From Fidelibacterota bacterium (GTDB taxonomy: Bacteria > Fidelibacterota > UBA8477 > JABMPR01), in NCBI GenBank assembly GCA_021734255.1, contig JAIPJM010000003.1, forward strand, positions 61,517-125,516: a stretch of 64,000 bases of DNA, in the 5' to 3' direction. The stretch's first letter is position 1; every line of letters begins with the position of its first letter. The notes beneath the pieces were generated by a model. That model worked only from the letters and a program-made list of their open reading frames with translations, was not told the origin of the DNA and ran no database searches. The position numbers and the translations under genes were made by a program. Positions 2,124 through 14,801 of this stretch are shown here, one piece after another.

Positions 2124-2273
2124 TGTCATTCTGGGCGTCAACGAAGAATCTTGATCTGGATTTCGGAGTAAACCTTACACGTCTTCGCGAGCCCTTAGGG
2201 CGTGGCGATCTCGAATTATCCCTAATTGGCAAAGACAATATTATTGGGTATTTTTCCTCACTTCAGGATGGTC
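2124..2273. repeat. MITE-like/REP-like repeat copy A (about 150 bp): ttgtcattctgg...tttcggagtaaaccttacacgtcttcgcgagccc-hairpin...cttcaggatggtc
   Basis: Shares 70-80% identity over about 100 bp with copy B at 3406-3646. Terminal inverted-repeat-like ends tgtcattctg / caggatgac. Lies immediately 3' of the glpD-like gene. Confidence 0.5.
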
Positions 2274-3372
2274 TTCGCGACCTTTTCAGCCAATGAAAGG
2301 TAGGTGGTCAGTTTTCCGCCAAAAATATGGATCAATTTGCTCTCACCCTTTTGATGGACATCCAGCTTATACTCCCTGCTCACATCTGACATATTTCCTT
2401 TTTTTCGAACCAGGGGCCGAACACCAATGTAAATATCCCTGACATCCTCACGCTGGAATTGGTGATCCGTTTTCAGATAAACATTCACCTGGTCCAACAG
2501 ATATTGGATATCTGCTTCCGCAGCCTCCACCTCATCCATCTCACAATTTTCCTCGCGCTCTGTTGTCCCCAGGATCGTCTGATCATTTTCAGGTTCCGGA
2601 ATGATAAAGAAGATTCGCTTTTCCCTGGTCTGCATGAACATGAGGTTGGGAACCATAACGCCATCGAAGATCAGGTGGATACCACTCACTTTCCGGATCT
2701 GATACCTGGCTGGGAAATGATATGCTTCGTTCACCTCATCCATCCAGGGACCGGTTGCATTGATGAGCAGGGGAGCCTGAAATTCTCCTGCAGCAGAATG
2801 CACAACAAAACCAGATCGATCCCAATCTATTGATTCGATATCGTCATGAACGATGATCGTCCCCCCAAATTCCTGAAAATCATCTGCAACCCGGCGGGTC
2901 AACTCCCGATCGTGGGTTTTTGCATCCACATAGGAGAGGACTGAGCGCAAGCCATTCTCTGAAAAAGCCGGGAATCGCTCCAAAAAGGCTTCCATGCTTT
3001 CCTTCCGTGATCTTCCAGCTGACCTGGAGCCTGAGAGGATATCATACATCCACAAACCAATACGGATCATCCAACCGGGACGGGGGCTGCTTTTATAGAT
3101 GGGAAGTATGAATCTTTCGTAGTGCACCAGGTCGGGATACTTCTCCACCAGGCGTTGCCGATCATGGAGAGCCTCATAGACCAGGTGGATCTGAGCGGTT
3201 TCCAGATAGCGGAGACCACCATGAATGAGTCGTGAAGATTTGGAGGACGTTCCGCTCCCTACGCCATTTTTGTCCAGCAGTAGTACCTGTTTGCCTTGGC
3301 GGGCAAGATTCTCTGCCACACCACAGCCATTGATACCGGCGCCAAGTACGATGACGTCATAGGATTGCATAG
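2258..3372 (-). CDS. FAD-dependent glycerol-3-phosphate dehydrogenase-like oxidoreductase (GlpA/GlpD family, short form)
   Basis: N-terminal Rossmann motif SYDVIVLGAGINGCGVAENLARQG and GlpD-like motifs (SSKSSRLIHGGLRYLE). The start is moved to MQSYD, because the longer ORF (to 3439) would read through the MITE-like repeat. Confidence 0.75.
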
Positions 3373-3405
3373 TTAAAGATAACCCAAATAAACACTCCAG
3401 AGAAT

Positions 3406-3646
3406 TGTCATTCTGAGTTTTATAACTGGGAAATGTCATCCTGAATCCTTCGACTAAGCTCAGGATAAACGCAGGATATTGAACCTGATTTCGAAGTAAG
3501 CCCTACACGTCTTCGCGATCCCGACAGGCATGTCGGGAGAAGCGATCTCCACTTGATCCCAATTGCCAAGATTATGTATGATTCAGCATCTTAAATTCTG
3601 AGATTGTCCGCCTACGCTTTGTCCTTCGACAGGCTCAGGATGACAG
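3406..3646. repeat. MITE-like repeat copy B (composite, about 240 bp) with internal direct repeat ccttcgacNNNgctcaggat and terminal inverted repeats tgtcatyctga / tcaggatgaca
   Basis: Alignable to copy A (tgatttcgaagtaagccctacacgtcttcgcgatccc + hairpin cccgacaggcatgtcggg + aattgccaagatta). Sits in the 5' region of the glpD-like gene. Confidence 0.5.
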
Positions 3647-3703: not shown

Positions 3704-5107
3704 CTATTTGAACAGAGGCCACCACAGGAGTGCCAGGAGCAGTAGTGATCCAATGGACATGATAGCCATCTTCCAGCCCGCTCGCAGGAAGTCAGGTGCC
3801 CTGACCAACCCGCTGGAATAAATAATGGTACAGGCAGGTGCGGCTACGGCTGTAAAATATCCAAAGGCTGAAGAAATGACGGAAGCCAGACCCAGAAGGA
3901 TGGGATCTCCACCTAAATTCAGTACGATGGGACCGACAACGGCAACGGTTGCTGAACTGCTCAGCAAATTTGAGAACACGCCGCTTAAGCCCACTGAGAC
4001 CACGGCCCGCAGTGCGTCTATATTGGGAATGATCCCACTCAACAGATTCACACTCCCCTCGGCCAGCCAGGCTGCGCCTCCTGTGTTTTTCATCTGAACA
4101 CCAATGGAGATGGTCGCTCCAAAGAGCAGAATTACTCCCCAGTTCACATTCTGCCGAATGTCCTCCCACGAGACCAGATCAAACGCGATGAACAGAAAAA
4201 CCCCCATGAGCGCTATGGTTCCGATCCCATACCTTTCGCTCAGGGTTATCCAACTGGTGAGGATGCCCAGAAAAAGCAGCATGGAAAATATCTCTTTCCT
4301 GGAGATCTTCCCGGCGCGGGCAACATTCACGGAGAGTTTACGAACGGCTGTGTCTAATATTTTTAATTCAGGCGGGAAGGTCTTCAGAATAATGAGGATG
4401 GTGATCGGTATCTCGATCAAAACCATGGGATATACCATCTTCATCCACTCCAGGTAACTCATTGTCCCAGACCCGAATTCTGCCCAATAATTCAGCATGA
4501 TAACATTACGGCCACCACCACTGGGAGTACCAATGGAACCAATGGTGGCGCCATAGGCGATGGAAAACAGCAGAGCCGCAACAAGGTTTGTGTCTGCCTT
4601 GCCCTTTTTATTGGTAAAACGAATGAGTGTGAGCGCTACGGGAAGCATCATGGCTGTGACCATGTGGGGTCCAACAAAACTGGATAAAAGTGCTGAGATG
4701 GCCGTAAATCCTGCGGCAATTCGCCAGGTCCGATTACCGGTGAGACGAATGATCCCCAGCGCGAGGCGCTTATCTAATCCCTGGCTGATAATGGCCACAG
4801 CCAACATGAGAGATCCCATGATAAAGAAGACCGCATCATTCATAAAGTAAGCGCCGACTTCATTGGGTGTGCTCCCACCGATAATTACCTGCCAGAACAG
4901 TAGTTGCAGGGCGATGGCTGGTAGCGGAATGGGTTCTTTCAGGATAAGGATCAGCGTCATCAGGATGATGATCAGGATGTGGTACCCAGCATCGCTCAAG
5001 CCTTCAGGAGCTGGGACGAATAGGTAGAGGATCCCTCCCAAAGCGAATGCGACCAGAAGCCAACGCTTCTGTTGGATCCAAAAAAGCGTATTCGTTGATA
5101 TGTGCAA
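3704..5107 (-). CDS. IT-superfamily anion permease (SLC13/DASS-like; ArsB/NhaD/CitMHS superfamily), paralog 1
   Basis: 467 aa, multi-TM throughout. About 65% identical to paralog 2 at 6038-7438, with shared blocks FMNDAVFFIMGSLMLAVAI, SQGLDKRLALGII, GTPSGGGRNVIM, SSSATVAVVGPIVL. Confidence 0.7.
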   Translation of the reverse strand: MHISTNTLFWIQQKRWLLVAFALGGILYLFVPAPEGLSDAGYHILIIILMTLILILKEPIPLPAIALQLLFWQVIIGGSTPNEVGAYFMNDAVFFIMGSLMLAVAIISQGLDKRLALGIIRLTGNRTWRIAAGFTAISALLSSFVGPHMVTAMMLPVALTLIRFTNKKGKADTNLVAALLFSIAYGATIGSIGTPSGGGRNVIMLNYWAEFGSGTMSYLEWMKMVYPMVLIEIPITILIILKTFPPELKILDTAVRKLSVNVARAGKISRKEIFSMLLFLGILTSWITLSERYGIGTIALMGVFLFIAFDLVSWEDIRQNVNWGVILLFGATISIGVQMKNTGGAAWLAEGSVNLLSGIIPNIDALRAVVSVGLSGVFSNLLSSSATVAVVGPIVLNLGGDPILLGLASVISSAFGYFTAVAAPACTIIYSSGLVRAPDFLRAGWKMAIMSIGSLLLLALLWWPLFK

Positions 5108-5120
5108 AGTAGGGCGCTTC

Positions 5121-6056
5121 TTAGCGGACGATCAGAATCGGGACATCCGTTTGCTTTAAGGTCTGAATGGGCTTACTTCCAAAAAGAAATTGTTTAAGCG
5201 GATTTAAGGTAGAGGCACCCATAATGACAATGTGATTATCACCGGCGAATTCTACGAAGGTTCGGACCGGGTCACCTGTGAGAAAAAATTGCTCCACATC
5301 AATTCCCCTGGAATCAAAGTAGGCTTTGGCCATGTCCGCAGCGCCCTGGTAACCAGCGCCAAACCGGCTGGTCTTGGAAACGGTCAGGGTTCTCACCGGC
5401 CATCCCAATTTTTCGGCGATCAGAGCTCCCCATTCAACAGATTTTGCTGTGGCTGTGGAATCGTCAACCAGCAGAAGGAGTTTATATTTTTTCCGGGGAT
5501 TGAATTTTTGCAAAACAAAAATTGAGCCTGGCAGGTATTGGATAAGGGAGTGAGCCAGATTCCGTTTGTTTTGACTCCCACCAATGATAGCAAGATCATA
5601 TTTTTCCAATTGCATCTCTTTACGCAACTCACCGACCAGTTCTCCTTCGCGCAAAACGAGCTCAATTTTCTTCCCTTCAACATCTGGCATGAAAACCCGG
5701 ATCCTGCCATCCTCTTCATAGACGTGATCTGGGTTGAACTGGATCTTCGCCAAAGCTTCGTTCTCGGGATTCAATTTCTTCAACTCCTTGAGTGCCCATT
5801 GCAACACTTCAAGACCAGGATGAATGATATTCCAGTCTGTCAGATTCTGGCGCGTCAGATTGACTGAGCTTCCATGAAACTCACTGGCTTTCTTGCCGAC
5901 GTAGGCTACACCCATGCTGGCATCAAATACAGAGGCAATGAGTGACCCAAATGTAAGCGTCGGTTTGGAGTACTTCTCACTGCTGACTGCCGTTAGAAAC
6001 TTGAGTGGTTTGGTGTCGATCTTTTCTCGTTTTTTCGTCATAATAGTGGCCACCAT
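5121..6056 (-). CDS. Universal stress protein, tandem UspA domains. Likely true start MTKKREK at 6041 with ATGA overlap onto the upstream permease stop.
   Basis: Two Usp-like halves (ILVDDSTATAKSVEWGA...; DVPILIVR C-terminus). Located between the two permease paralogs. Confidence 0.75.
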   Translation of the reverse strand: MVATIMTKKREKIDTKPLKFLTAVSSEKYSKPTLTFGSLIASVFDASMGVAYVGKKASEFHGSSVNLTRQNLTDWNIIHPGLEVLQWALKELKKLNPENEALAKIQFNPDHVYEEDGRIRVFMPDVEGKKIELVLREGELVGELRKEMQLEKYDLAIIGGSQNKRNLAHSLIQYLPGSIFVLQKFNPRKKYKLLLLVDDSTATAKSVEWGALIAEKLGWPVRTLTVSKTSRFGAGYQGAADMAKAYFDSRGIDVEQFFLTGDPVRTFVEFAGDNHIVIMGASTLNPLKQFLFGSKPIQTLKQTDVPILIVR

Positions 6057-7438
6057 AATAAGGATAATGCAAGTAGGCTAACAATAGATAAAACAGCCAT
6101 TTTCCAGCCCGCTCGTAAAAAATCTTTCGATCGCACAAGACCGCTGGAGTAGATAATAGTACAGGCTGGCGCAGCGACGGCAGTAAAATAGCCAAAGGCG
6201 GAGGCGATGGCGGTGGTGAAGCCAATGAGAATCGGGTCGCCCCCCAGGTCCAGCACGATGGGCCCCACTACAGCAACTGTAGCAGAACTGCTGAGAACAT
6301 TTGACATCACACCAGTAAGCAAGACTGAGACACTCCCCTGCAAGACCGCCGGACTTTCAATAATTTGACTGAGGTTAACGATTATGGTCTTGGCTACCCA
6401 TTGGGCGGCACCCGATTGATTCATCTGAATACCAATGGAAATAGCGGCACCAAAGAGGAGAATGACCCCCCAATTCGTCCGCTGATTCAGTTCACTCCAG
6501 TCAACCAAACCGAAAGCAAGATATAGGAAGACACCGATCAGAGCGATCACACCCAGACCAACATCTTCACTGAGGAAAACCCAGCCCAGGAACACCAGGC
6601 CAAAGAGGAACAGAGCCAGCCATTCCTTCCCTTTGATCTTGCCAGCATGGGCAACATCCACCACTAACTTTCGTACAGCGCTGTCCAGAATGTCGTATTC
6701 AGGTTTGAAGGTCCAGAGCAGAATGATGACTGTAAATGGGATCTGAAAAAGAACCATGGGATACACATATTTTATCCATTCCAGATAGGAGACAGTACCC
6801 ACACCAAATTCTGACCAATAATTCATCATGATCACATTCCGTCCACCACCAGAGGGGGTACCAATAGAGCCTATCGTGGCACCATAGGCGATGGAAAAGA
6901 GCAGGGCCGCTGTCAAGCCGGCAACTTTTCTGGGGTCTTTATGGGCATAGCGGACCAGGGTAAGACCAACGGGCATCATCATGGCGGTTACTGTATGTTC
7001 ACCAATAAATGAAGACAGAATCGCAGATATGGCGGTAAACCCAACGACGATTCGCCAGGTCTTATGGCCGGTGATCTTGATGATCCCCAGGGCCAGACGC
7101 TTATCCAGTCCCTGACTGACGATGGCTACCGCCAGCATGAGGGATCCCATGATGAAGAAAACGGCATCATTCATAAATGAAGACGCCACATTATTGGCGG
7201 TATCCACTCCCAAAACCACTTGCATGAAGATCATGAGCATGGCGATGGCTGGAAGGGGTAATGGCTCTGTAATGATCAGGATCAGAGCCATGGATATGAT
7301 GATCAGGGTATCGTAGGCCGCCATGGTCAAATCGGCAGGAGGTGTGATGAAAGTATGCATGACAAGGCCATACAAAAGGGCGATGAGCAGCCACTTTTTC
7401 TGACGTATCCAGAACAGGATATCGATATACATACTCAA
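6038..7438 (-). CDS. IT-superfamily anion permease (SLC13/DASS-like), paralog 2
   Basis: 466 aa. Close paralog of 3704-5107. Immediately downstream (minus strand) of the molybdoenzyme gene. Confidence 0.7.
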   Translation of the reverse strand: MSMYIDILFWIRQKKWLLIALLYGLVMHTFITPPADLTMAAYDTLIIISMALILIITEPLPLPAIAMLMIFMQVVLGVDTANNVASSFMNDAVFFIMGSLMLAVAIVSQGLDKRLALGIIKITGHKTWRIVVGFTAISAILSSFIGEHTVTAMMMPVGLTLVRYAHKDPRKVAGLTAALLFSIAYGATIGSIGTPSGGGRNVIMMNYWSEFGVGTVSYLEWIKYVYPMVLFQIPFTVIILLWTFKPEYDILDSAVRKLVVDVAHAGKIKGKEWLALFLFGLVFLGWVFLSEDVGLGVIALIGVFLYLAFGLVDWSELNQRTNWGVILLFGAAISIGIQMNQSGAAQWVAKTIIVNLSQIIESPAVLQGSVSVLLTGVMSNVLSSSATVAVVGPIVLDLGGDPILIGFTTAIASAFGYFTAVAAPACTIIYSSGLVRSKDFLRAGWKMAVLSIVSLLALSLLWWPLL

Positions 7439-7469
7439 CTCACTCCACTGGCCGGTTCAATGAAAGTTG

Positions 7470-10331
7470 CTATTCGGTGGAATTGTTCTTCAAATAGAAC
7501 AACTCCTTGCTTGGGGCTAAGGGGCGGCCCATCCAGAGCGGTCTTCTTAAGCCATCCGGGTGTGTCTCACGTTCTTTTGCCCAGTCATTCCACTTCTTGA
7601 AGTGAGCAAATGACTTTTCGGTATCTACAAAGACGTCACCATATTTTTCATCTGCTTTGGGCACACTGATGGTCACTTTTTGCAGCCAGCAATGGGCACC
7701 TGATACTGGATCCGGTTGGACGGCATGAGTGATGTTCTGATGAACCCCTCCATCTCGCCACCAGACACGCTGAGTGTCAGGATCGTCGGTCTTCCAGGGT
7801 TCGACGCCAGTGAGTGTCTCCATGCGCCACTTGCCTGTGCCTTCTTGACTGATCTTCACTGTATTGGTCATAAATTTATTGCCCTGGTCTTGCTGACGAC
7901 GCCAACGACCAATATGATGGGAACAGGCAACCACGCCAGGTTTAATTGCCTCTGTTACCCAAACTTTGTCCACGAACCAACCGATCTCTGTCTCAATTTT
8001 GAGCAATTCACCCGTTTTTACTCCCAGTTTTTTCGCATCAAGGGTATTGATCCAGATGGGGTTCCTGTGGGCGATCTCTGTCAGCCATTTGGCATTGGCA
8101 GAGCGACTGTGAATGTGGGTCGGAAGTCTGAAATTGGGTAACAGCACACATTCATGTTTGTCCTCATCCATATGATCCTTATGAACATGGGATTTGATAT
8201 AACCCGGTATGGCCTGATCCGGATAACCAAAATCCACCATGGTCTGGGAAAAGAACTCCTGTTTCCTGGAGGGTGTCGGAAATCCTGCATATTTCTTCCC
8301 TTTGTCAACAACACCAACCGCTTTACCGTCCTTTATCAGTGTTCCGGTTGCGGTCTCTGTGGCTCCTTCTGCGTCCATCTCAGATAGGGGCGTCTTGTTC
8401 TTCTCGTAGAGGCTGGGAACCACATTGTACGCGCCATACTTCCGCATATACTCAAGAGCGGTGAGACCCTCCTTTTCCGCTGTCTCCGTTAGGCCCTCTG
8501 TATGTTCGAAGATGTACTGGTAATATTCATCAATGTTGATCTTCTCGCCCTCGCGATAGGGGCTCATAAAGTGCTTCCTGATACCCAGATCATTGTCCTT
8601 ATCGATACGCCAGGATAGTTCGATCCAGAATTCATCCTCTTCCCAGACCTGGCCAGGGTTCACTTCGTAGGTGTACTCTACTGGCCTGCCTTCCCTTCTG
8701 GCTTGTTCTCTCAGAACGGGCTGACGATAGGCGATCCAGACCCCGGAATGGGTCTCATATGAATTGAGGTCATGGCGTTCGGGACCGTGTCCCATGGGAA
8801 GTACATAGTCTGCGAAAAATGCTGTCTCATTCCAGGTAGGCGTCAGTGCAATGTGGCAGCCAACTTTCTCTGGGTCAGACAGCATCTCGATCCAGGAAAA
8901 TCCATCGGGATAGGTCCAGACCGGGTTAAAGACTCGCGTAAAGTAAACATCCATGGTCCCACGACCATCCTTGATCAGGTGAGGCAGGATCTGACTCATT
9001 TCGAAGTGATTCAGAGTGTATTCCTGTGGAAAGTGGAGTTCATTCCAGACAGGGGGACCGGGAGGTACGTCAAAAAATTCAGGGTGGAATTTATTCCAGG
9101 CGCTGGGTGAGGTGCCACCGGGGGTTCCAACCGATCCTGTGAGGACATTCAGAAAATGCAGGGTTCTTGATACCTGCCAGCCGCCCAGGTTTCCGATGGA
9201 AGCGCCGCGCCATACATGACTTGACAACTGCGAGCCGGCGCCAGCAATAACATGAGCGACCTCAACGATCTGCTCTGCTTCAATACCGGCTTCGGATGCT
9301 GCATACTCAGGGGTGAACTCGGAGTAGACATCGATCAGAGCTGACACGAAATTGTCAAAAGTAAGGTCAAGATCGGGATGCTCAGCCTTGAGATATTCAT
9401 CCCAATTGACCCAGGTTTCCATATACTCACGATCATACAAGCCTTCTTGAAGAATGATACGGGCGATGGCCAGAAACACAGCTGCCTCAGATCCCGGGTA
9501 TGTTGGCATCCAGTAGTCGGCATGACTGGCTGTATTGGAGAGGCGGGGATCCAGCACGATAAGCTTGGCGCCCTTGAGCTTGCCTTCCATGATACGCTGA
9601 GCATGGGGATTGAAATAGTGACCGGTTTCAAGATGCGAACTGGCCAGGATGATAACCTTGGCGTTGGTGTGATCCGGAGATGGTCGATCGAATTTATGCC
9701 ACATGGCATATCCGGCACGTGCACCTGCTGAACAAATATTGGTGTGGGAATTATGTCCATCAACTCCCCAGGCCTTGAGAACACGTTCCATATAGCCTTC
9801 ATGTCCAGGACGACCGACATGGTAAACAACCTTATCCCGGCGCTCAGCTTTCAAAGATTTCTGGATCTTGGCTGCGATCTCATCCAGAGCCTGCTCCCAG
9901 GAAATGGTCTCCCACTTCCCTTCTCCACGCTCACCCGCCCGTTTCAGAGGATACATGATACGTTCAGTATCATTCACCTGGTTAATGGTTGCAGGACCTT
10001 TGGCACAGTTCCTTCCGCGGGAACCTGGGTGGTGAGGATTTCCCTCAAATTTACGGATCTTGCCGTCTTCTTTGTCGATATATGCCAACAAACCACAGGC
10101 TGATTCGCAATTGAAACAGGTGGTCGGAACGATACTATAGCGTCGCTCTTTTTTTACGGGCCAGGATTTGGGATCCAATTCTGCAAAATCTTCCCACTGA
10201 TCCGGGGGGGGATATTTATACAGGGGTCGCGGTCCTTCAAGAGCATAGACCTCTGAAGTGTCTTCATGTTGGGATATCCTGGGGATCACCCCGATCCCTT
10301 CGGCAAATTTTTCTATCCATGAACGTTTCAT
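7470..10331 (-). CDS. Molybdopterin (bis-MGD) oxidoreductase catalytic subunit, DMSO-reductase/CISM family. No Tat signal, so predicted cytoplasm-facing (SoeA-like / PsrA-PhsA-TtrA-like).
   Basis: 953 aa. N-terminal [4Fe-4S] motif CFNCESACG...C about 75 aa from the start. Candidate Mo-ligand region HTNICSAGARAGY. Main frame has an in-frame TGA 9 codons upstream of the ATG, so no hidden RR leader. Partner FeS/NrfD gene upstream. Confidence 0.85.
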   Translation of the reverse strand: MKRSWIEKFAEGIGVIPRISQHEDTSEVYALEGPRPLYKYPPPDQWEDFAELDPKSWPVKKERRYSIVPTTCFNCESACGLLAYIDKEDGKIRKFEGNPHHPGSRGRNCAKGPATINQVNDTERIMYPLKRAGERGEGKWETISWEQALDEIAAKIQKSLKAERRDKVVYHVGRPGHEGYMERVLKAWGVDGHNSHTNICSAGARAGYAMWHKFDRPSPDHTNAKVIILASSHLETGHYFNPHAQRIMEGKLKGAKLIVLDPRLSNTASHADYWMPTYPGSEAAVFLAIARIILQEGLYDREYMETWVNWDEYLKAEHPDLDLTFDNFVSALIDVYSEFTPEYAASEAGIEAEQIVEVAHVIAGAGSQLSSHVWRGASIGNLGGWQVSRTLHFLNVLTGSVGTPGGTSPSAWNKFHPEFFDVPPGPPVWNELHFPQEYTLNHFEMSQILPHLIKDGRGTMDVYFTRVFNPVWTYPDGFSWIEMLSDPEKVGCHIALTPTWNETAFFADYVLPMGHGPERHDLNSYETHSGVWIAYRQPVLREQARREGRPVEYTYEVNPGQVWEEDEFWIELSWRIDKDNDLGIRKHFMSPYREGEKINIDEYYQYIFEHTEGLTETAEKEGLTALEYMRKYGAYNVVPSLYEKNKTPLSEMDAEGATETATGTLIKDGKAVGVVDKGKKYAGFPTPSRKQEFFSQTMVDFGYPDQAIPGYIKSHVHKDHMDEDKHECVLLPNFRLPTHIHSRSANAKWLTEIAHRNPIWINTLDAKKLGVKTGELLKIETEIGWFVDKVWVTEAIKPGVVACSHHIGRWRRQQDQGNKFMTNTVKISQEGTGKWRMETLTGVEPWKTDDPDTQRVWWRDGGVHQNITHAVQPDPVSGAHCWLQKVTISVPKADEKYGDVFVDTEKSFAHFKKWNDWAKERETHPDGLRRPLWMGRPLAPSKELFYLKNNSTE

Positions 10332-10384
10332 AGTCTGATCCCCTCGATCTTCTTTTCAGATATATAATGTTGAATAAGGTTCAT
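10328..10384 (-). CDS. Candidate 18-codon upstream ORF (MNLIQHYISEKKIEGIRL), translationally coupled to the molybdoenzyme gene
   Basis: Strong SD TAGGAGGA 6 nt upstream of its ATG. The SD overlaps the stop of the FeS/NrfD gene. Its TGA overlaps the ATG of the 953-aa gene (ATGA). Confidence 0.25.
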   Translation of the reverse strand: MNLIQHYISEKKIEGIRL

Positions 10385-10394
10385 CTGTATCCTC

Positions 10395-12005
10395 CTAGCT
10401 CAACGGAATCAACTGGGGTACCCGGATCCTCACAAACTCGGTGAGATAAATACCGACAGCAGCCAGGCCAGCAGCGATGAAGACCATGAGATCCGTATCC
10501 AGAGTATAAAGCATAGCCAGCGGAACAATATTTCCCATGAGTATTCCCAGATAGAAATAGCGGCTATAATAGCCCCCGGTCATGAGTTTATGGGCACGTT
10601 TGGTATCCGATGTGGCATGCGGGCTCAGGAATTCAAGTACGAGAAGAGCCAGATTCAGAGAAACGGCAACCTTGAGTACCGTGAGGACCAGTCCACCTCC
10701 ATCACTGGCCAGGAAAATCCAACCTGCCGCACCAGCGATCAGAGCATGGATCAGCATGTGAACAGGAGCCAGATGATTGGCCCACAGATCTCTTCCTTTA
10801 GCCTGAGCCAGCAGGAAGGCCGTATAAATAGCCGTCATGACCGCAATTGGGGCCGTTAGATTGATCAGCAACTTGCGAAAGCCCAGGTCGAAAAGGTTAT
10901 CAAGCAGGAGCAGGGTTACAACACCACCAAAGGCTGTGATCAAGTATCCACCGCGAACCAGCCAGCTGGACCAGTTGGGTCTCAGTAGTACATAGGGGAA
11001 GCGATCCGGTCGATCCAGATCTTTCACCAACAAACCGCCAGTGAACAGCATGAATACCAGGGTCCCAATAGCAGCAGAAAACTCAAGGCTTGAATTTGAG
11101 ACACCACCGAACCATGATAACAGGGCCATGATCAGCATGAGCCCCGTCGCCACAGATTTGGTCCAGATGTAAGCCGGGACTTCCCAGCCCCAAAGCACAC
11201 CTTTGGCAGGTGAGTCGTAGACACGGGTTGCTTTGCTGGATGCCTGTTCTTTTAATTCTGCCAGCACATTATCGATAGCTCTTTGATCCGGTTGGGTGCC
11301 ATTTTTCGCATGGGATTCCATGGCCATCTGTACCAGGAGATCGGCTTGGGCCTCTGTGCTTGCAGGGTCACTGGCATGTTTGGCAAAATGACCAACACCA
11401 CTGGACTGCTCACTCCAAATATAATTATCGCGACGATCGGTCTGGGTCGGTGTCAGCATATCTGAATCACCTTCCACATACCAGAGATTGGGGGTGGTCC
11501 CCTTTTCTGGTTTTCTGGTGACCACGTGCTCCATAGCAACAAAAGATGATATTTTTGAATGCGGATCATCCAGATCCCCTGAAACGATGGCCTCCGTCGG
11601 ACAGATCACAACACATGCTGGTTCATATCCGCCATCGATCCTGTGGGCACAGTAATTACACTTGGCCGCCGTATTGTCATTGGGGTCGATATAGAGTGCA
11701 TCGTAGGGACAAGCCTGCATACAGGACTTGCAGCCGATACAACGCGCATTATCGAAATCTACGATTCCGTCCATACGTGTATACAGGGCAGACGTGGGAC
11801 AGATCTCCGTGCAGGGAGCATCTTCACAATGATTGCAACGGTGGACTGAGAAGGAACGACTGGTGTCCGGAAAGACACCTTTTTCGATGTATTTCACATG
11901 GGTGCGATTGACACCGATGGCCACATCGTGTTCAGATTTACAGGCAACCGTACAGGCATGACAGCCAATACATTTACGGTTGTCTATGACAAAGCCATAA
12001 TTCAT
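10395..12005 (-). CDS. Fused electron-transfer/membrane-anchor subunit: N-terminal 4x[4Fe-4S] ferredoxin domain (PsrB/SoeB-like) plus C-terminal NrfD/PsrC/SoeC-like polytopic membrane domain
   Basis: Four Cys clusters (CIGCHACTVACKSEH, CNHCEDAPCTEICP, CIGCKSCMQACP, CNYCAHRIDGG..CVVICP) in the first 150 aa. A hydrophilic linker follows, then about 8 TM helices. No signal peptide. Confidence 0.8.
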   Translation of the reverse strand: MNYGFVIDNRKCIGCHACTVACKSEHDVAIGVNRTHVKYIEKGVFPDTSRSFSVHRCNHCEDAPCTEICPTSALYTRMDGIVDFDNARCIGCKSCMQACPYDALYIDPNDNTAAKCNYCAHRIDGGYEPACVVICPTEAIVSGDLDDPHSKISSFVAMEHVVTRKPEKGTTPNLWYVEGDSDMLTPTQTDRRDNYIWSEQSSGVGHFAKHASDPASTEAQADLLVQMAMESHAKNGTQPDQRAIDNVLAELKEQASSKATRVYDSPAKGVLWGWEVPAYIWTKSVATGLMLIMALLSWFGGVSNSSLEFSAAIGTLVFMLFTGGLLVKDLDRPDRFPYVLLRPNWSSWLVRGGYLITAFGGVVTLLLLDNLFDLGFRKLLINLTAPIAVMTAIYTAFLLAQAKGRDLWANHLAPVHMLIHALIAGAAGWIFLASDGGGLVLTVLKVAVSLNLALLVLEFLSPHATSDTKRAHKLMTGGYYSRYFYLGILMGNIVPLAMLYTLDTDLMVFIAAGLAAVGIYLTEFVRIRVPQLIPLS

Positions 12006-12059
12006 AGTAGTTGGTCTCCCCCGTTCAGAATTCGGGTAAAAATCATTTATTCAGTTGGT

Positions 12060-13232
12060 TCAGGAAGCCTGTTGAGCAGCATATGCAGACGCTGCACATT
12101 CGTTCTTCCCAAGGTCCATGGTGCTCTGCTCATCATCCTCTGGATTCAGCCAACCGGCATTCACCTTTCTGATCTCAGCATAGACATCAGGCTGCTTACG
12201 TATGTTTTCCAGGATGAATTTTTGGAAATCCTTATCATTATCGATCCCATAAATGGACGCATTACCCTCAATGATCTTCCCCAGTGATTTTTCAAAAACC
12301 AGGTCTTCATTTGCTTCGCTCCACTGGATATAATGACCGGGAAGCACCTGAAGGTTGGGATCCATCTTTTTGATCTTCTGGTTTACTGTTTCATAAAGCA
12401 TGGTGGCCCATTCGACTGCTTTACCGCCTAGATCTGGTCGCCCCAGCGATATGATGAAAATCGTATCTCCAGATATCACATATTTCCCGTCAATGATGTA
12501 GCAGGTGCTGCCAGGTGTATGGCCCGGCGTATGAACGATCCTGATATCAGGGCCTTTGGGAGAAGCCTTGTAGGTCTCGCCGTCCTGAATAGAAACATAT
12601 TCGAAACTGGCACCGAGAAAATCACCGGCATGTGCATGAACCACTGCCCCTGTTTTTTCTGCCAGGAAGCGACTGCCACTGATATAATCAGCCTGAAGGT
12701 GTGTTTCGAAAGTTTGGGTTAGCTTGCAATCATGCGCTTCCGCAAATTGAGAGTAAAACTCCATATTCCTCGAAGGATCAAAGAGAGTCAGCTCACCTTC
12801 AGAGATCAAACCATAATTCAGAGAGGCTTTTCCAGGCCGAACGAACTGCCACAGTTCGTAGGTATCCGCAGTATCGTTAATTCTTTTGTCTGTCAACATA
12901 TTGCCCCAGGAAACGATTCCCTGGGTTAGATACCCTACATCTTCAAATCCATGGGCGATCAGGATCTCGCCTACATATTTCGCTGAGCCTTCCTTCGCGC
13001 AGACGACCCTCACCTTTTTATCACGCGGGACCTTGGCTACCGATGCTTCCTCTTCTTCCATGAAGTCAAAATAAGGGACATTGATCATATCCACTTCAAC
13101 GGGACTTTCCACTTTGAAGCGGTTGAAGTCCTCTTCATTTCTTACATCCAGAATGAGGAGTTCTTCCGCTTGGGTGAGCCAGTCAAAAAGTTGCTTTGCT
13201 GAGTAGGGAGTAAGCATGTAATTACCTCGCAA
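12060..13232 (-). CDS. Rhodanese-domain / MBL-fold fusion protein, persulfide dioxygenase (ETHE1/Blh)-like
   Basis: N-terminal rhodanese (LILDVRNEEDF...VVCAKEGSAKY). C-terminal MBL fold aligning to ETHE1 (THLQADYISGS vs THCHADHITGS; HTPGHTPGS; SGDTIF). The ETHE1 Fe ligands (His, His, Asp) are conserved. Confidence 0.75.
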   Translation of the reverse strand: MRGNYMLTPYSAKQLFDWLTQAEELLILDVRNEEDFNRFKVESPVEVDMINVPYFDFMEEEEASVAKVPRDKKVRVVCAKEGSAKYVGEILIAHGFEDVGYLTQGIVSWGNMLTDKRINDTADTYELWQFVRPGKASLNYGLISEGELTLFDPSRNMEFYSQFAEAHDCKLTQTFETHLQADYISGSRFLAEKTGAVVHAHAGDFLGASFEYVSIQDGETYKASPKGPDIRIVHTPGHTPGSTCYIIDGKYVISGDTIFIISLGRPDLGGKAVEWATMLYETVNQKIKKMDPNLQVLPGHYIQWSEANEDLVFEKSLGKIIEGNASIYGIDNDKDFQKFILENIRKQPDVYAEIRKVNAGWLNPEDDEQSTMDLGKNECAASAYAAQQAS

Positions 13233-13478
13233 TCATTTCATACGCTGGACATAGAATATCTTATCGAGTCCAACTTCGTCTATCTGTAAAACCTTTTGTC
13301 CGGAGGCTCTGCACCAGGCCTTGATATCTGATTCTGCTCAGGGATGAGCAGCTGTAATTTTCAGTATCTCACCTATCTGCATCATTCTTAATTGTTGGTT
13401 CGAACGAATCACCGGCATTCCCATGCCGCAGTCCCCCAGATCTATGGATACATCCCATTTGACGTCCATATGCTTCAT
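13233..13478 (-). pseudogene. TusA-like sulfur-carrier paralog with in-frame TGA (13338-13340) and altered active-site motif (CPxP replaced by CGMGMP)
   Basis: Translation MKHMDVKWDVSIDLGDCGMGMPVIRSNQQLRMMQIGEILKITAAHP*AESDIKAWCRASGQKVLQIDEVGLDKIFYVQRMK aligns along its whole length with the neighbouring TusA (…DPGSKNDISAWTSRTGHELLG…FVYFIKKK). The stop sits where Gly/Ala is expected. The extended frame ends exactly at the start of the next gene. Confidence 0.5.
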
Positions 13479-13482
13479 TGTG

Positions 13483-13998
13483 CTAAATGAAAAGTGATAT
13501 ATCAGCGTCTGCCGCAAACTCCAGGAAGGTTGCTGCACCGCCAAGTTCAACGCCATCGATGAACTGATCCTGTGTAAATCCGAAGACATCCATGGTCATC
13601 TGACAGCCAATCAGTCTGACACCCAGATCGATGCACATTTCACGCAGCTCTTCCACCGTCGCGACACCTTTTTTCGCAAAGGTCTTCTTCATGAAGGATG
13701 TTGCCATGGCCTCATAGCCTGGAACATTGTTGCCCAGGATATTGGGGATGGGCCACTCAAAATTCTGAAATCCCTTTGGCCCAAATGGCATCTTCATGGG
13801 CATGGCAGGATTGGTCTGTGGCGCCACCTTGGCATCAATCTTTTTGTTCAGCAGGGGCAGCCCATAGAAGGTAAAGAATACAGCAACTTCCATATCCATG
13901 GCGGCTGCTGTCGAGGCTAGTAAAAATGGCGGATAAGCCCAGTCCAGAGTTCCCTGGGAGGCGATCATTGCCAAGCGCTTGGGTCTGTTTTCACTCAT
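13483..13998 (-). CDS. DsrE/DsrF-like (DsrE2-type) sulfur-relay family protein
   Basis: 171 aa. Conserved LIGCQMTMDVFG Cys motif typical of the DsrE/DsrF/DsrH-like family. Adjacent to TusA. Confidence 0.7.
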   Translation of the reverse strand: MSENRPKRLAMIASQGTLDWAYPPFLLASTAAAMDMEVAVFFTFYGLPLLNKKIDAKVAPQTNPAMPMKMPFGPKGFQNFEWPIPNILGNNVPGYEAMATSFMKKTFAKKGVATVEELREMCIDLGVRLIGCQMTMDVFGFTQDQFIDGVELGGAATFLEFAADADISLFI

Positions 13999-14009
13999 GG
14001 ATCACCCGC

Positions 14010-14246
14010 TCACTTCTTCTTGATGAAGTAAACGAACCCTTCATCATTTTCATCAGTACCAAGTAGTTCATGGCCTGTACGGGACGTCCATGCAGAAATA
14101 TCATTTTTTGAACCTGGATCAGTCGCTACCATTTTTAGAATTTGACCACTCTCCATAGCATCAATTGCCTTCTTGGTCTTGATCACGGGAAGAGGGCAAT
14201 TCAGTCCTTTGCAATCCAGTTCCTGATCCACATTAAATTCTGTCAT
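14010..14246 (-). CDS. tusA: TusA-like sulfurtransferase
   Basis: 78 aa with canonical LDCKGLNCPLPVIKTKKAI...TDPGS (CPxP motif). Confidence 0.85.
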   Translation of the reverse strand: MTEFNVDQELDCKGLNCPLPVIKTKKAIDAMESGQILKMVATDPGSKNDISAWTSRTGHELLGTDENDEGFVYFIKKK

Positions 14247-14596
14247 TTAGCTACTCCTTCTTTCTCCGGGAAAAGCTCCCCCAATTTGAATTCTCCAGCT
14301 TCCAATCCGATTTTGCATGAATTGACGCAATTTAAGATTTTCACGATCATATCACTGGCTAAAAAATAAAAAAATCGGGTGCCCTCACGCCTGGAGGCCA
14401 GAATGTTGCGTCTTTGCATGTAACGCAGATGCTGGGAAGTGATGGGCTGGGGGAGATCCAATTCACGTTGGATCTGTCCGACTGACTTTTCTTCTTCCTG
14501 CAAAAACTCAATGATCCGTAATCGTTCGGGATGCCCCAATGCTTTCAAGGTCTTGGAGGCTGATGCGAAAAATTCAGCTTTCTCGGTATCGGTCAT
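14243..14596 (-). CDS. ArsR/SmtB-family transcriptional regulator, SqrR/BigR-like candidate persulfide/redox sensor
   Basis: HTH region LKALGHPERLRIIEFLQEEEKSVGQIQRELDLPQPITSQHLRYM. C-terminal CVNSC pair. Start placed at MTDTEK (14594-14596), because the upstream direct repeats are likely the operator. The ORF track's longer start is 14632. Confidence 0.8.
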   Translation of the reverse strand: MTDTEKAEFFASASKTLKALGHPERLRIIEFLQEEEKSVGQIQRELDLPQPITSQHLRYMQRRNILASRREGTRFFYFLASDMIVKILNCVNSCKIGLEAGEFKLGELFPEKEGVAK

Positions 14597-14801
14597 GTTT
14601 TGTATCACCATTATTAAGACAATATTTGTCATAATATATAGTTTTCACTATATTTGTCAAGTTGAATATTTACACCTGTAGGGCAGCGGTCATGGCAATT
14701 GCTTTTAGCACCAAAAAATGTAGTTTGTCAGGTGTTTTACACCTTCTTTTATAGTAACCCATCCCCCATTAATTCATCAATAATGATATAATTTTTCAGG
14801 A
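14597..14801. promoter_or_regulatory. Divergent promoter region (regulator leftward, acnA rightward) with direct repeat TATTTGTCA x2 (14623-14631, 14651-14659) and near-palindrome GACAATATTTGTC
   Basis: Repeats seen directly, in an AT-rich interval between divergent genes. Candidate ArsR-family operator. Confidence 0.4.

Follow-up and report, generated by a model that had tools for sequence, protein, structure and literature searches.

A predicted operon of a Marinimicrobia bacterium links a sulfane-sulfur relay and twin anion permeases to a cytoplasm-facing PsrBC-PsrA-type molybdoenzyme

Background

Which reaction is catalyzed by a molybdoenzyme that has been called a polysulfide reductase when its genes stand among those of sulfur carriers and anion permeases? 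The question is raised by a block of ten genes on a 64-kb stretch of DNA (hereafter the window; 64,000 nucleotides of contig JAIPJM010000003.1, assembly GCA_021734255.1) from a Marinimicrobia (SAR406) bacterium. The block encodes an ArsR-family regulator, a relay of TusA, DsrE2 and rhodanese-type sulfur carriers, a two-gene molybdoenzyme composed of an iron-sulfur/membrane-anchor fusion (BC) and a catalytic subunit (A), and two permeases of the DASS/SLC13 family. In this work we propose, with moderate confidence, that these genes may well serve to oxidize sulfane sulfur to sulfate in the cytoplasm and to detoxify it, BC-A working like the sulfite-oxidizing enzyme SoeABC.

Enzymes of this type have been reported before. 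A psrBC fusion with psrA downstream and no twin-arginine translocation (Tat) signal, hence a cytoplasmic enzyme, was described on the Marine Group A fosmids FPPP_13C3 and 122006-I05 (Wright 2014, ISME J, PMC3906813). The closest relatives were found on fosmids of Marine Group II (MGII) archaea with the same features, the enzyme was likened to the cytoplasmic polysulfide reductase (PSR) of green sulfur bacteria, and polysulfide reduction or sulfide oxidation was favored (PMC3906813). That paper cites Frigaard & Bryant 2008 for a psrBC fusion in green sulfur bacteria and Gregersen 2011 for the proposal that the green-sulfur-bacterial complex oxidizes sulfite delivered by Dsr. Marinimicrobia genes were later handled as polysulfide reductase (Hawley 2017), and a 2020 review held that the function of psr genes is not readable from sequence. 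PSRLC3 was inferred to be a sulfite oxidase in a study that had the validated SoeA D3RNN8 among the references of its tree (Williams 2022), and the literature mentions 'Two genes encoding PSRLC3' for Prosthecochloris. The SoeABC genes were called universal among purple and green sulfur bacteria in a 2021 review that paraphrases Dahl 2013. The enzyme is mentioned neither in the Thermomicrobium transcriptome paper nor in the MGII genomics paper.

Methods

Gene identities were assigned by profile matches to Pfam and NCBIfam. For the synteny analysis, open reading frames (ORFs) were called in 84 loci and clustered, and the recurrent clusters were annotated. Loci are designated by L numbers and proteins by P numbers.

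Results and discussion

Ten genes predicted to form one operon

The block runs unbroken from position 14632 to position 3704, all ten genes lying on the minus strand (Table 1). Pfam or NCBIfam matches were obtained for each of them, and both gene content and coordinates agree with the original prediction. The spacing between genes ranges from overlap up to 63 nt, the ArsR gene overlapping the start of TusA by 4 nt, and this spacing suggests co-transcription of the block as one operon. The arrangement is not a matter of chance, since 71 of 81 related loci have the BC fusion ahead of A, and since the string ArsR-TusA-DsrE2-Rhd/MBL-BC-A, in which Rhd/MBL stands for a fusion of rhodanese and metallo-beta-lactamase (MBL) domains, was seen in 5 further Marinimicrobia genomes; a sixth contig begins inside DsrE2. 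The best promoter-like site of the region, a consensus match only, lies directly upstream of the first gene, and the number of promoter-like sites in the region was not above that in shuffled sequences.

The block is flanked by a divergent aconitase gene and, on the other side, after a gap of 265 nt, by a gene for a DAO-family FAD oxidoreductase (393 aa, 2258-3439, minus strand). No terminator-like site was seen between the last DASS gene and this gene, which may share the transcription unit. Among the 20 ORFs scanned outside the block in the window, none was a further sulfur gene.

Table 1. Positions of the genes and sites of the block in the window
Feature	Position	Strand	Characteristics
Sigma-70-like promoter	14633..14660	-	TTGACA-16 nt-TATATT; 11/12 consensus matches; intergenic region shared with the divergent aconitase gene
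ArsR/SmtB-family repressor	14243..14632	-	C-terminal CxxxC pair; HTH_5 E=1e-10; NF033788 74.7 bits (cut-off 55)
Canonical TusA	14010..14246	-	Active-site motif LNCPLP (CPxP); PF01206 90.2 bits (cut-off 28.6)
Soluble DsrE2-like sulfur carrier	13483..13998	-	PF13686 161.6 bits (cut-off 25); NF047629 209.3 bits (cut-off 210)
TusA-like gene	13233..13478	-	81 codons; in-frame TGA at 13338-13340; PF01206 only on read-through (44.9 bits, E=1e-11)
Small hairpin, possible bacterial selenocysteine insertion sequence (SECIS)	13304..13321	-	Begins 16 nt past the UGA; stem of 7 bp with one bulge, loop GUG
Rhodanese + CstB/PDO-like MBL domain	12060..13232	-	N-terminal rhodanese (loop CAKEGS); likely start ATG at 13217; PF00753 match
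Four-[4Fe-4S] + eight-helix NrfD/PsrC anchor fusion ('PsrBC')	10395..12005	-	536 aa; 16 Cys in four motifs; PF13247, PF03916
Mo/W-bisPGD catalytic subunit A	7470..10331	-	953 aa, 109.0 kDa; PF04879, PF00384, PF01568; N-terminal CxxCxxxC...C cluster
DASS/SLC13 anion permease 1	6038..7438	-	TIGR00785 217.8 bits (cut-off 198.6)
Protein with C-terminal universal stress protein (USP) domain	5121..6056	-	311 aa; PF00582 45 bits
DASS/SLC13 anion permease 2	3704..5107	-	TIGR00785 227.9 bits (cut-off 198.6)

A molybdoenzyme predicted to face the cytoplasm

The BC protein opens directly with its first Cys motif, and eight hydrophobic segments follow past residue 278. From hydropathy and the positive-inside rule, an N-in topology is predicted, with 12 Lys and Arg residues in the cytoplasmic loops and 2 in the outer ones. 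The N-termini of both A and BC were read: neither carries a Tat or Sec signal or a hydrophobic leader, and no RRxF(L/I)K motif was found, as the original prediction had it for both subunits. Because of this missing signal peptide, the iron-sulfur domain and the active site are predicted to face the cytoplasm. In subunit A the CxxCxxxC motif occupies residues 72-79, and Cys200 aligns with a column of ArrA and PsrA that we take to hold the Cys ligand of the molybdenum, which makes Cys200 the predicted ligand here.

The BC fusion upstream of A, the lack of a Tat signal, and closest homologues in Marinimicrobia and MGII place the enzyme with the PSRLC3-type PsrBC-PsrA complexes. The original prediction had taken the fused BC and its position before A for a new architecture. 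This argument fails, because both, and the absence of signal peptides as well, had been published for Marinimicrobia and MGII, and the fusion is also found in green sulfur bacteria (Wright 2014). The fosmids of that study stem from the same phylum, and their pentose-phosphate and molybdenum-cofactor (Moco) biosynthesis neighbors recur in several related Marinimicrobia loci. Compared by description, they differ in that only a rhodanese-like gene is reported upstream, on one fosmid, and in that neither the ArsR-TusA-DsrE2-TusA(TGA)-Rhd/MBL string nor the DASS-USP-DASS tail was reported. What apparently has not been published is that the molybdoenzyme is physically joined to a TusA/DsrE2/Rhd-MBL relay and to twin DASS permeases, along with the pattern of transporters across phyla, the HxQxDY variant of the MBL domain, and a probable TusA-type selenoprotein.

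Side observations on the Marinimicrobia loci concern the cofactor. Moco-biosynthesis (MoaA-like) genes flank BC-A in many of them, and MobA-like and pentose-phosphate genes (Rpe, transketolase, RpiB) are found nearby, replacing the sulfur-relay genes; the stretches concerned lie downstream of A in L007, L008, L010, L013 and L021 and upstream in L005-L013.

The description of PSRLC3 in green sulfur bacteria is likewise of a BC fusion plus A in two genes, without signal peptide and with a proposed cytoplasmic sulfite oxidation. The green sulfur bacteria, however, pair the complex with rDsr as the source of sulfite, whereas in the block studied here the likely source is a presumably O2-dependent MBL domain related to persulfide dioxygenase (PDO).

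By description, BC-A also resembles the SoeABC of Allochromatium vinosum (Alvin_2489-2491) and Aquifex aeolicus in its cytoplasm-facing Mo-bisPGD (molybdenum-bis-pyranopterin guanine dinucleotide) subunit, four-cluster iron-sulfur subunit and NrfD anchor with eight transmembrane (TM) helices, as well as in the mass of A, about 109 kDa; SoeA itself is reported to have about 108.95 kDa. Unlike the fusion found here, B and C of A. vinosum are said to be separate, in the order A-B-C. The Cys ligand class is shared as well, and bSreA and SoeA form one unusually conserved lineage (Wells 2023). The BC-A family is highly conserved in the same way. The tentative link of subunit A to SoeA runs through what has been published on the cytoplasmic PSR/PSRLC3 complex of green sulfur bacteria.

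A conserved family in distant lineages

Subunit A is 91% identical to the metagenomic protein P0001, 88% identical to its counterparts in two Candidatus Neomarinimicrobiota metagenome-assembled genomes (MAGs), and 74-79% identical to those of many other Marinimicrobia. Identity is 67-70% with MGII archaea (Poseidoniales, Thalassarchaeaceae), 62-66% with Saprospiraceae, Lewinellaceae, Cyclobacteriaceae, KSB1 and a Planctomycete, and still about 55% with Rhodococcus jostii RHA1 pRHL3, Thermomicrobium roseum and Natrinema replicons. Since identity is so high across distant bacterial and archaeal lineages, the family appears to be very conserved and widely transferred. A tblastn search of plasmids returned it only from haloarchaea, Rhodococcus and Thermomicrobium, the remaining matches being of the Arx, Dms, Phs and Fdh types. 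Repeated transfer between domains is implied by the values for MGII (L019-L027) and for Haloarchaea, Actinobacteria and Chloroflexi, and was noted in Wright 2014. When the 40%-identity representative P0123 was used as a query for homologues, only members from soil lineages were matched, and the IMG labels of family members are generic only.

The nearest full-length proteins outside the family are Tat-exported B-C-A-TorD enzymes and Psr/Phs-like proteins. The former (P0128/L087, Azoarcus sp. KH32C pAZKH L083 and a Sulfurovum mangrovi plasmid, L084) show 30-44% identity and share the N-terminal motif RYPP(F/P)ExW and the order BC before A with the family, but their B and C genes are not fused, and a TorD-type chaperone and one more iron-sulfur protein are encoded as well. 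The representatives P0128, P0151 and P0157 carry Tat signals. No obvious signal-less SoeA being among these nearest outsiders, canonical SoeA may lie either within the 50%-identity cluster of the family or quite far from it. Two further observations were made on such loci. The Azoarcus locus also contains genes for a PhnD-like binding protein, a sensor kinase, a sigma-54 regulator and ACR3. In soil-lineage members of the family, a NarJ/TorD-type chaperone gene (PF02613) directly follows A in L095:9943-10839 and L096:9966-10817, though A has no Tat signal there, and the operon of the window has none.

Neighboring genes favor an oxidative role

The genes next to BC-A differ between lineages and are largely concerned with sulfur. 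In Bacteroidota, a SulP+STAS permease is found at 24 of 45 loci and a CstB-like MBL-Rhd protein at 21 of 45, together with an SQR-like flavoprotein with DUF1641, YeeE/YedE-like transporter halves, single rhodaneses and a Crp regulator. MGII archaea carry a TauE/SafE exporter at 4 of 8 loci and Rhd/MBL at 2 (Thalassarchaeaceae, the same protein as in the window). On pRHL3 of R. jostii RHA1 the order is MBL, ArsR, MBL, DsrE, TusA, BC, A, and in the 5.4-Mb genome of L095 it is BC, A, chaperone, DsrE, TusA, MBL, rhodanese, TauE; in T. roseum a CsoR-type regulator stands in front of BC-A. The original prediction had proposed to look for SLC13 genes beside the complex in related genomes, and these were indeed found: in 9 Marinimicrobia-like loci, a DASS-USP pair occurs no more than 8 kb from BC-A and in the same orientation. 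Three unrelated transporter families (DASS, SulP and TauE), each with named members that carry sulfate or sulfite, thus adjoin BC-A in at least 5 distant lineages. Many of the hosts belong to groups that we take to be aerobic heterotrophs. Transporters and host groups together favor an oxidative role with sulfate as the product.

On this basis the following pathway can be proposed. The rhodanese domain would take up persulfide sulfur derived from sulfide, polysulfide or organic persulfides, and TusA, DsrE2 and the TusA-like (seleno)protein would hand the sulfur on to one another. The MBL domain, a relative of CstB and PDO, would oxidize it with O2 to sulfite, possibly also to thiosulfate. BC-A would then oxidize cytoplasmic sulfite to sulfate at the molybdenum, passing two electrons through five iron-sulfur clusters to quinone in NrfD, and the two DASS permeases would export the oxyanion product. 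Reactive sulfur would act on the ArsR-type repressor through its CxxxC pair and de-repress the operon. Oxidation of sulfite to sulfate with quinone reduction and export is the most economical reading because it accounts for the transporters, the persulfide-handling partners and the aerobic host groups. The claim that every gene of the block fits one pathway is accordingly supported for the co-directional relay, molybdoenzyme and permeases and for the synteny across phyla, which fit a course from persulfide through sulfite to sulfate; it does not extend to the type of regulator or to a new architecture, and the MBL domain is PDO-like only in part.

No NCBIfam model was passed by subunit A, with PhsA, DmsA, ArrA, TtrA and YnfE far under their cut-offs. 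Its AlphaFold2 model (pLDDT 86.6) gave ArrA and PsrA as best structural matches, both at about 20% identity, ArrA being the best among solved structures. SoeA occurred neither among the NCBIfam matches nor among the solved-structure matches. With no Tat motif on A and the PhsA cut-off missed, the enzyme falls outside the periplasmic PsrABC/PhsABC group.

These relatives bring up a reductive reading, in which the complex, an enzyme of the bSre/Psr kind, would reduce sulfur, polysulfide, thiosulfate or tetrathionate on the cytoplasmic side, with the carriers feeding the Mo site, and would provide an anaerobic electron sink for Marinimicrobia of oxygen minimum zones. It has on its side the published label psrABC and the finding that the genes of some clades are expressed where conditions are anoxic or sulfidic (Hawley 2017; Wright 2014, PMC3906813). 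It would also suit PhsA, PsrA and ArrA as the best NCBIfam and structural relatives, and the common lineage of bSreA and SoeA. Suppliers of the rhodanese type serve such reductases, namely Sud for the Psr of Wolinella and SbdP for the Aquifex enzyme. We nevertheless regard a reductase as unlikely, because the enzyme is kept at 55-70% identity in aerobic lineages (MGII, Saprospiraceae, Rhodococcus, Thermomicrobium, haloarchaea), and because a producer of sulfide would have no need of the O2-dependent PDO-type MBL, SQR-like, SulP, TauE and DASS neighbors. Production of H2S in the cytoplasm beside a set of persulfide-detoxification genes would also be incoherent.

A still different substrate was considered, a non-sulfur oxyanion such as arsenite/arsenate or selenate/selenite, the ArsR protein and the permeases then belonging to metalloid resistance. 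ArrA as the best solved-structure match and the presence of an ArsR-family regulator agree with this, and TusA/YedF-like proteins and DASS or SulP permeases can be linked to selenium, as can the probable selenoprotein of the operon. The identity to ArrA is very low, however, the ArrA, YnfE and TtrA equivalogs were missed by far, the ArsR family is a generic one, and accessory genes of the ars, arr or arx type are absent. The conserved neighbors are sulfur-specific (TusA, DsrE2, rhodanese, CstB-like MBL, SQR-like, TauE, YeeE-like), and a metalloid or selenium substrate thus seems very improbable to us.

Several findings weigh against the sulfite-oxidizing reading that we prefer. The best NCBIfam score of subunit A, 201.3 bits, is that of PhsA (NF012032), whose cut-off is 694; the match covers the N-terminal third only. 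Among 1.84 billion representatives, no obvious signal-less SoeA of about 970 aa was found outside the 50%-identity clusters of the family. The Aquifex enzyme of the SoeA/bSreA lineage reportedly oxidizes sulfite and also reduces sulfur, polysulfide and tetrathionate, so the catalytic direction is not readable from sequence. In the MBL domain, the second His of HxHxDH is missing (HxQxDY). Gene spacing is the only ground for co-transcription. Finally, the two DASS permeases share 65% identity, and their closest structures are VcINDY and SLC13A2/5/3, carriers of dicarboxylates and citrate, with SLC13A1 coming only after these. Their assignment to SLC13/DASS was borne out by TIGR00785, but they come no closer to sulfate than to dicarboxylate carriers, and it is the gene context that suggests sulfate transport.

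The rhodanese-MBL fusion and the sulfur carriers

The structures nearest to the MBL domain are those of the CstB-type MBL-rhodanese proteins 3tp9 and 3r2u, and the Blh equivalog NF040641 scored 27.8 bits (cut-off 625). The original prediction of an ETHE1-like PDO holds for the MBL fold and the CstB-type nearest structures, but the signature FETHLQADYISGS (HLQADY; HxQxDY) stands in place of HxHxD(H/F). It is invariant throughout the nine homologues from Marinimicrobia and MGII (the window, L001, L002, L004, L006, L008, L009, L019 and L020), whereas the MBL proteins of Bacteroidota and Rhodococcus retain ETHFHADFVSGH. The domain keeps the first His, the His of PGH, the Asp of GD and the His of LPGH. 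The first three are the positions that we take to be the iron ligands of ETHE1, and dioxygenase activity is possible because they are retained. Two further cysteines are found in the protein, one in an invariant C-terminal MDLGKNEC motif and one in the CAKEGS loop of the rhodanese domain. The variant with HxQxDY is common to Marinimicrobia and to archaea of the Thalassarchaeaceae.

The fusion, with its CstB-like nearest structures, and a thiol-based repressor encoded by the first gene recall the CstR/CstA/CstB and BigR/Blh operons. They differ in the order of the domains (MBL-Rhd, as opposed to Rhd-MBL here), in HxHxDF in place of HxQxDY, and in their regulators, the one found here being of neither the BigR, the SqrR nor the CstR type. 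TusA, DsrE2 and rhodanese also make up the rhd-tusA-dsrE2 relay of sulfur oxidizers (Stockdreher 2014, as cited in the 2020 review). Unlike in these clusters and in the Cst and Blh operons, the relay of the window is physically joined to a respiratory molybdoenzyme operon. The DsrE2-like protein has no TM segment.

The linkage of carriers and enzyme allows another reading, in which the molybdoenzyme would oxidize persulfide or thiosulfonate bound to TusA or DsrE2 (R-S-S-/R-S-SO3-) and not free sulfite, with the selenocysteine (Sec) TusA-like protein as a dedicated carrier; this would be a third route beside rDsr and sHdr. DsrE-TusA adjoins BC-A in Rhodococcus and in L095, TusA-DsrE2 belongs to the same Marinimicrobia string, and the carriers are linked to BC-A more tightly than the MBL gene is. 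Among the annotated ORFs of the window neither dsr nor shdr genes were seen, and the Metallosphaera proteins DsrE3A and TusA reportedly bind thiosulfonate. However, no Mo-bisPGD enzyme is known to act on a persulfide bound to a protein, and BC-A occurs without adjacent TusA or DsrE in MGII, many Bacteroidota and Thermomicrobium. The green-sulfur-bacterial homologue is thought to use free sulfite derived from Dsr, according to the account in PMC3906813. We consider this reading quite doubtful; if true, it would give abundant marine heterotrophs (SAR406, MGII archaea, Saprospiraceae) a third cytoplasmic route of sulfane-sulfur oxidation.

A candidate selenoprotein of the TusA type

The second TusA-like gene contains a TGA in frame (...ITAAHP-U-AESDIKAWCRASG), and the conserved TusA frame continues past it. 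Where a canonical TusA has its CPxP cysteine, the protein reads C-G-M-G-M-P. The TGA is found at the identical codon in 5 sequences, those of the window, of the two closest MAGs (L001:6891-7109, L002:6870-7100) and of two short ENA contigs (L093:197-499, L094:340-618), which share 48-66% amino acid identity and are conserved as coding sequence on both sides. The three read-through versions that were tested all match PF01206 (E=1e-11 to 5e-14). TGA serves as a normal stop in 8 of 19 genes of the window, including the terminator of this very gene. A pseudogene or a recoded genome was rejected because the TGA is kept in 5 diverged sequences, the stretch past it is still conserved as coding sequence, and TGA is used as a normal stop elsewhere in the window. 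We conclude that the gene probably encodes a selenocysteine protein.

The public proteins P0403 and P0404 (L093 and L094) have Trp at this position. This is a gene-calling artefact, the DNA having TGA, and the calls presumably used genetic code 4, since the stored proteins disagree with a table-11 translation of the DNA. Calls of this kind mask selenoprotein candidates as apparent Trp.

The hairpin past the UGA is a candidate SECIS: 94% of its cells are paired across the homologues, with one compensatory pair. It was no more stable than shuffled sequences (z-scores -1.4 to +0.7) and had no Rfam match. Neither selenocysteine machinery nor tRNA-Sec was found within the window. Among 5.8 billion proteins, no homologue with Cys at the Sec position was found; there were only two matches, both with TGA in the gene. 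A TusA-type selenoprotein appears to be unreported so far: the selenoproteome catalogue of the GOS data contains no TusA/SirA family, and TusA is not named among the new selenoprotein families of a 2022 preprint.

The ArsR-family regulator

A regulator of the SqrR/BigR type had been predicted at the head of the block. The profiles do not bear this out, as the BigR equivalog NF040642 scored 53.7 bits (cut-off 155) and the TsoR model 55 bits (cut-off 115). In an alignment of 13 homologues the C-terminal CxxxC pair is conserved and the N-terminal half has no Cys, an arrangement other than that of BigR and SqrR, in which we presume the cysteine pair to be placed in alpha2 and alpha5. Judged by these features, the regulator is a generic ArsR/SmtB protein. 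Operator palindromes were sought in its promoter region and none was found. Its true start is probably Met13, near 14596, because the promoter-like -10 box ends 1 base before the annotated ATG; this start also agrees with the lengths of the homologues.

Conclusions

The most abundant uncultured plankton include Marinimicrobia and MGII archaea, whose 'psr' genes are routinely counted as polysulfide reduction in models of the ocean sulfur cycle. The synteny across at least 5 distant lineages points instead to an oxidative, sulfate-forming and quinone-reducing role. Cultured carriers of the family exist in Rhodococcus jostii RHA1 (pRHL3), Thermomicrobium roseum, Flavilitoribacter nigricans and Natrinema. 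Should the second TusA-like protein be a true selenoprotein, the bacterial selenoproteome would gain a sulfur-carrier family, and the use of selenium would be tied to sulfur trafficking.

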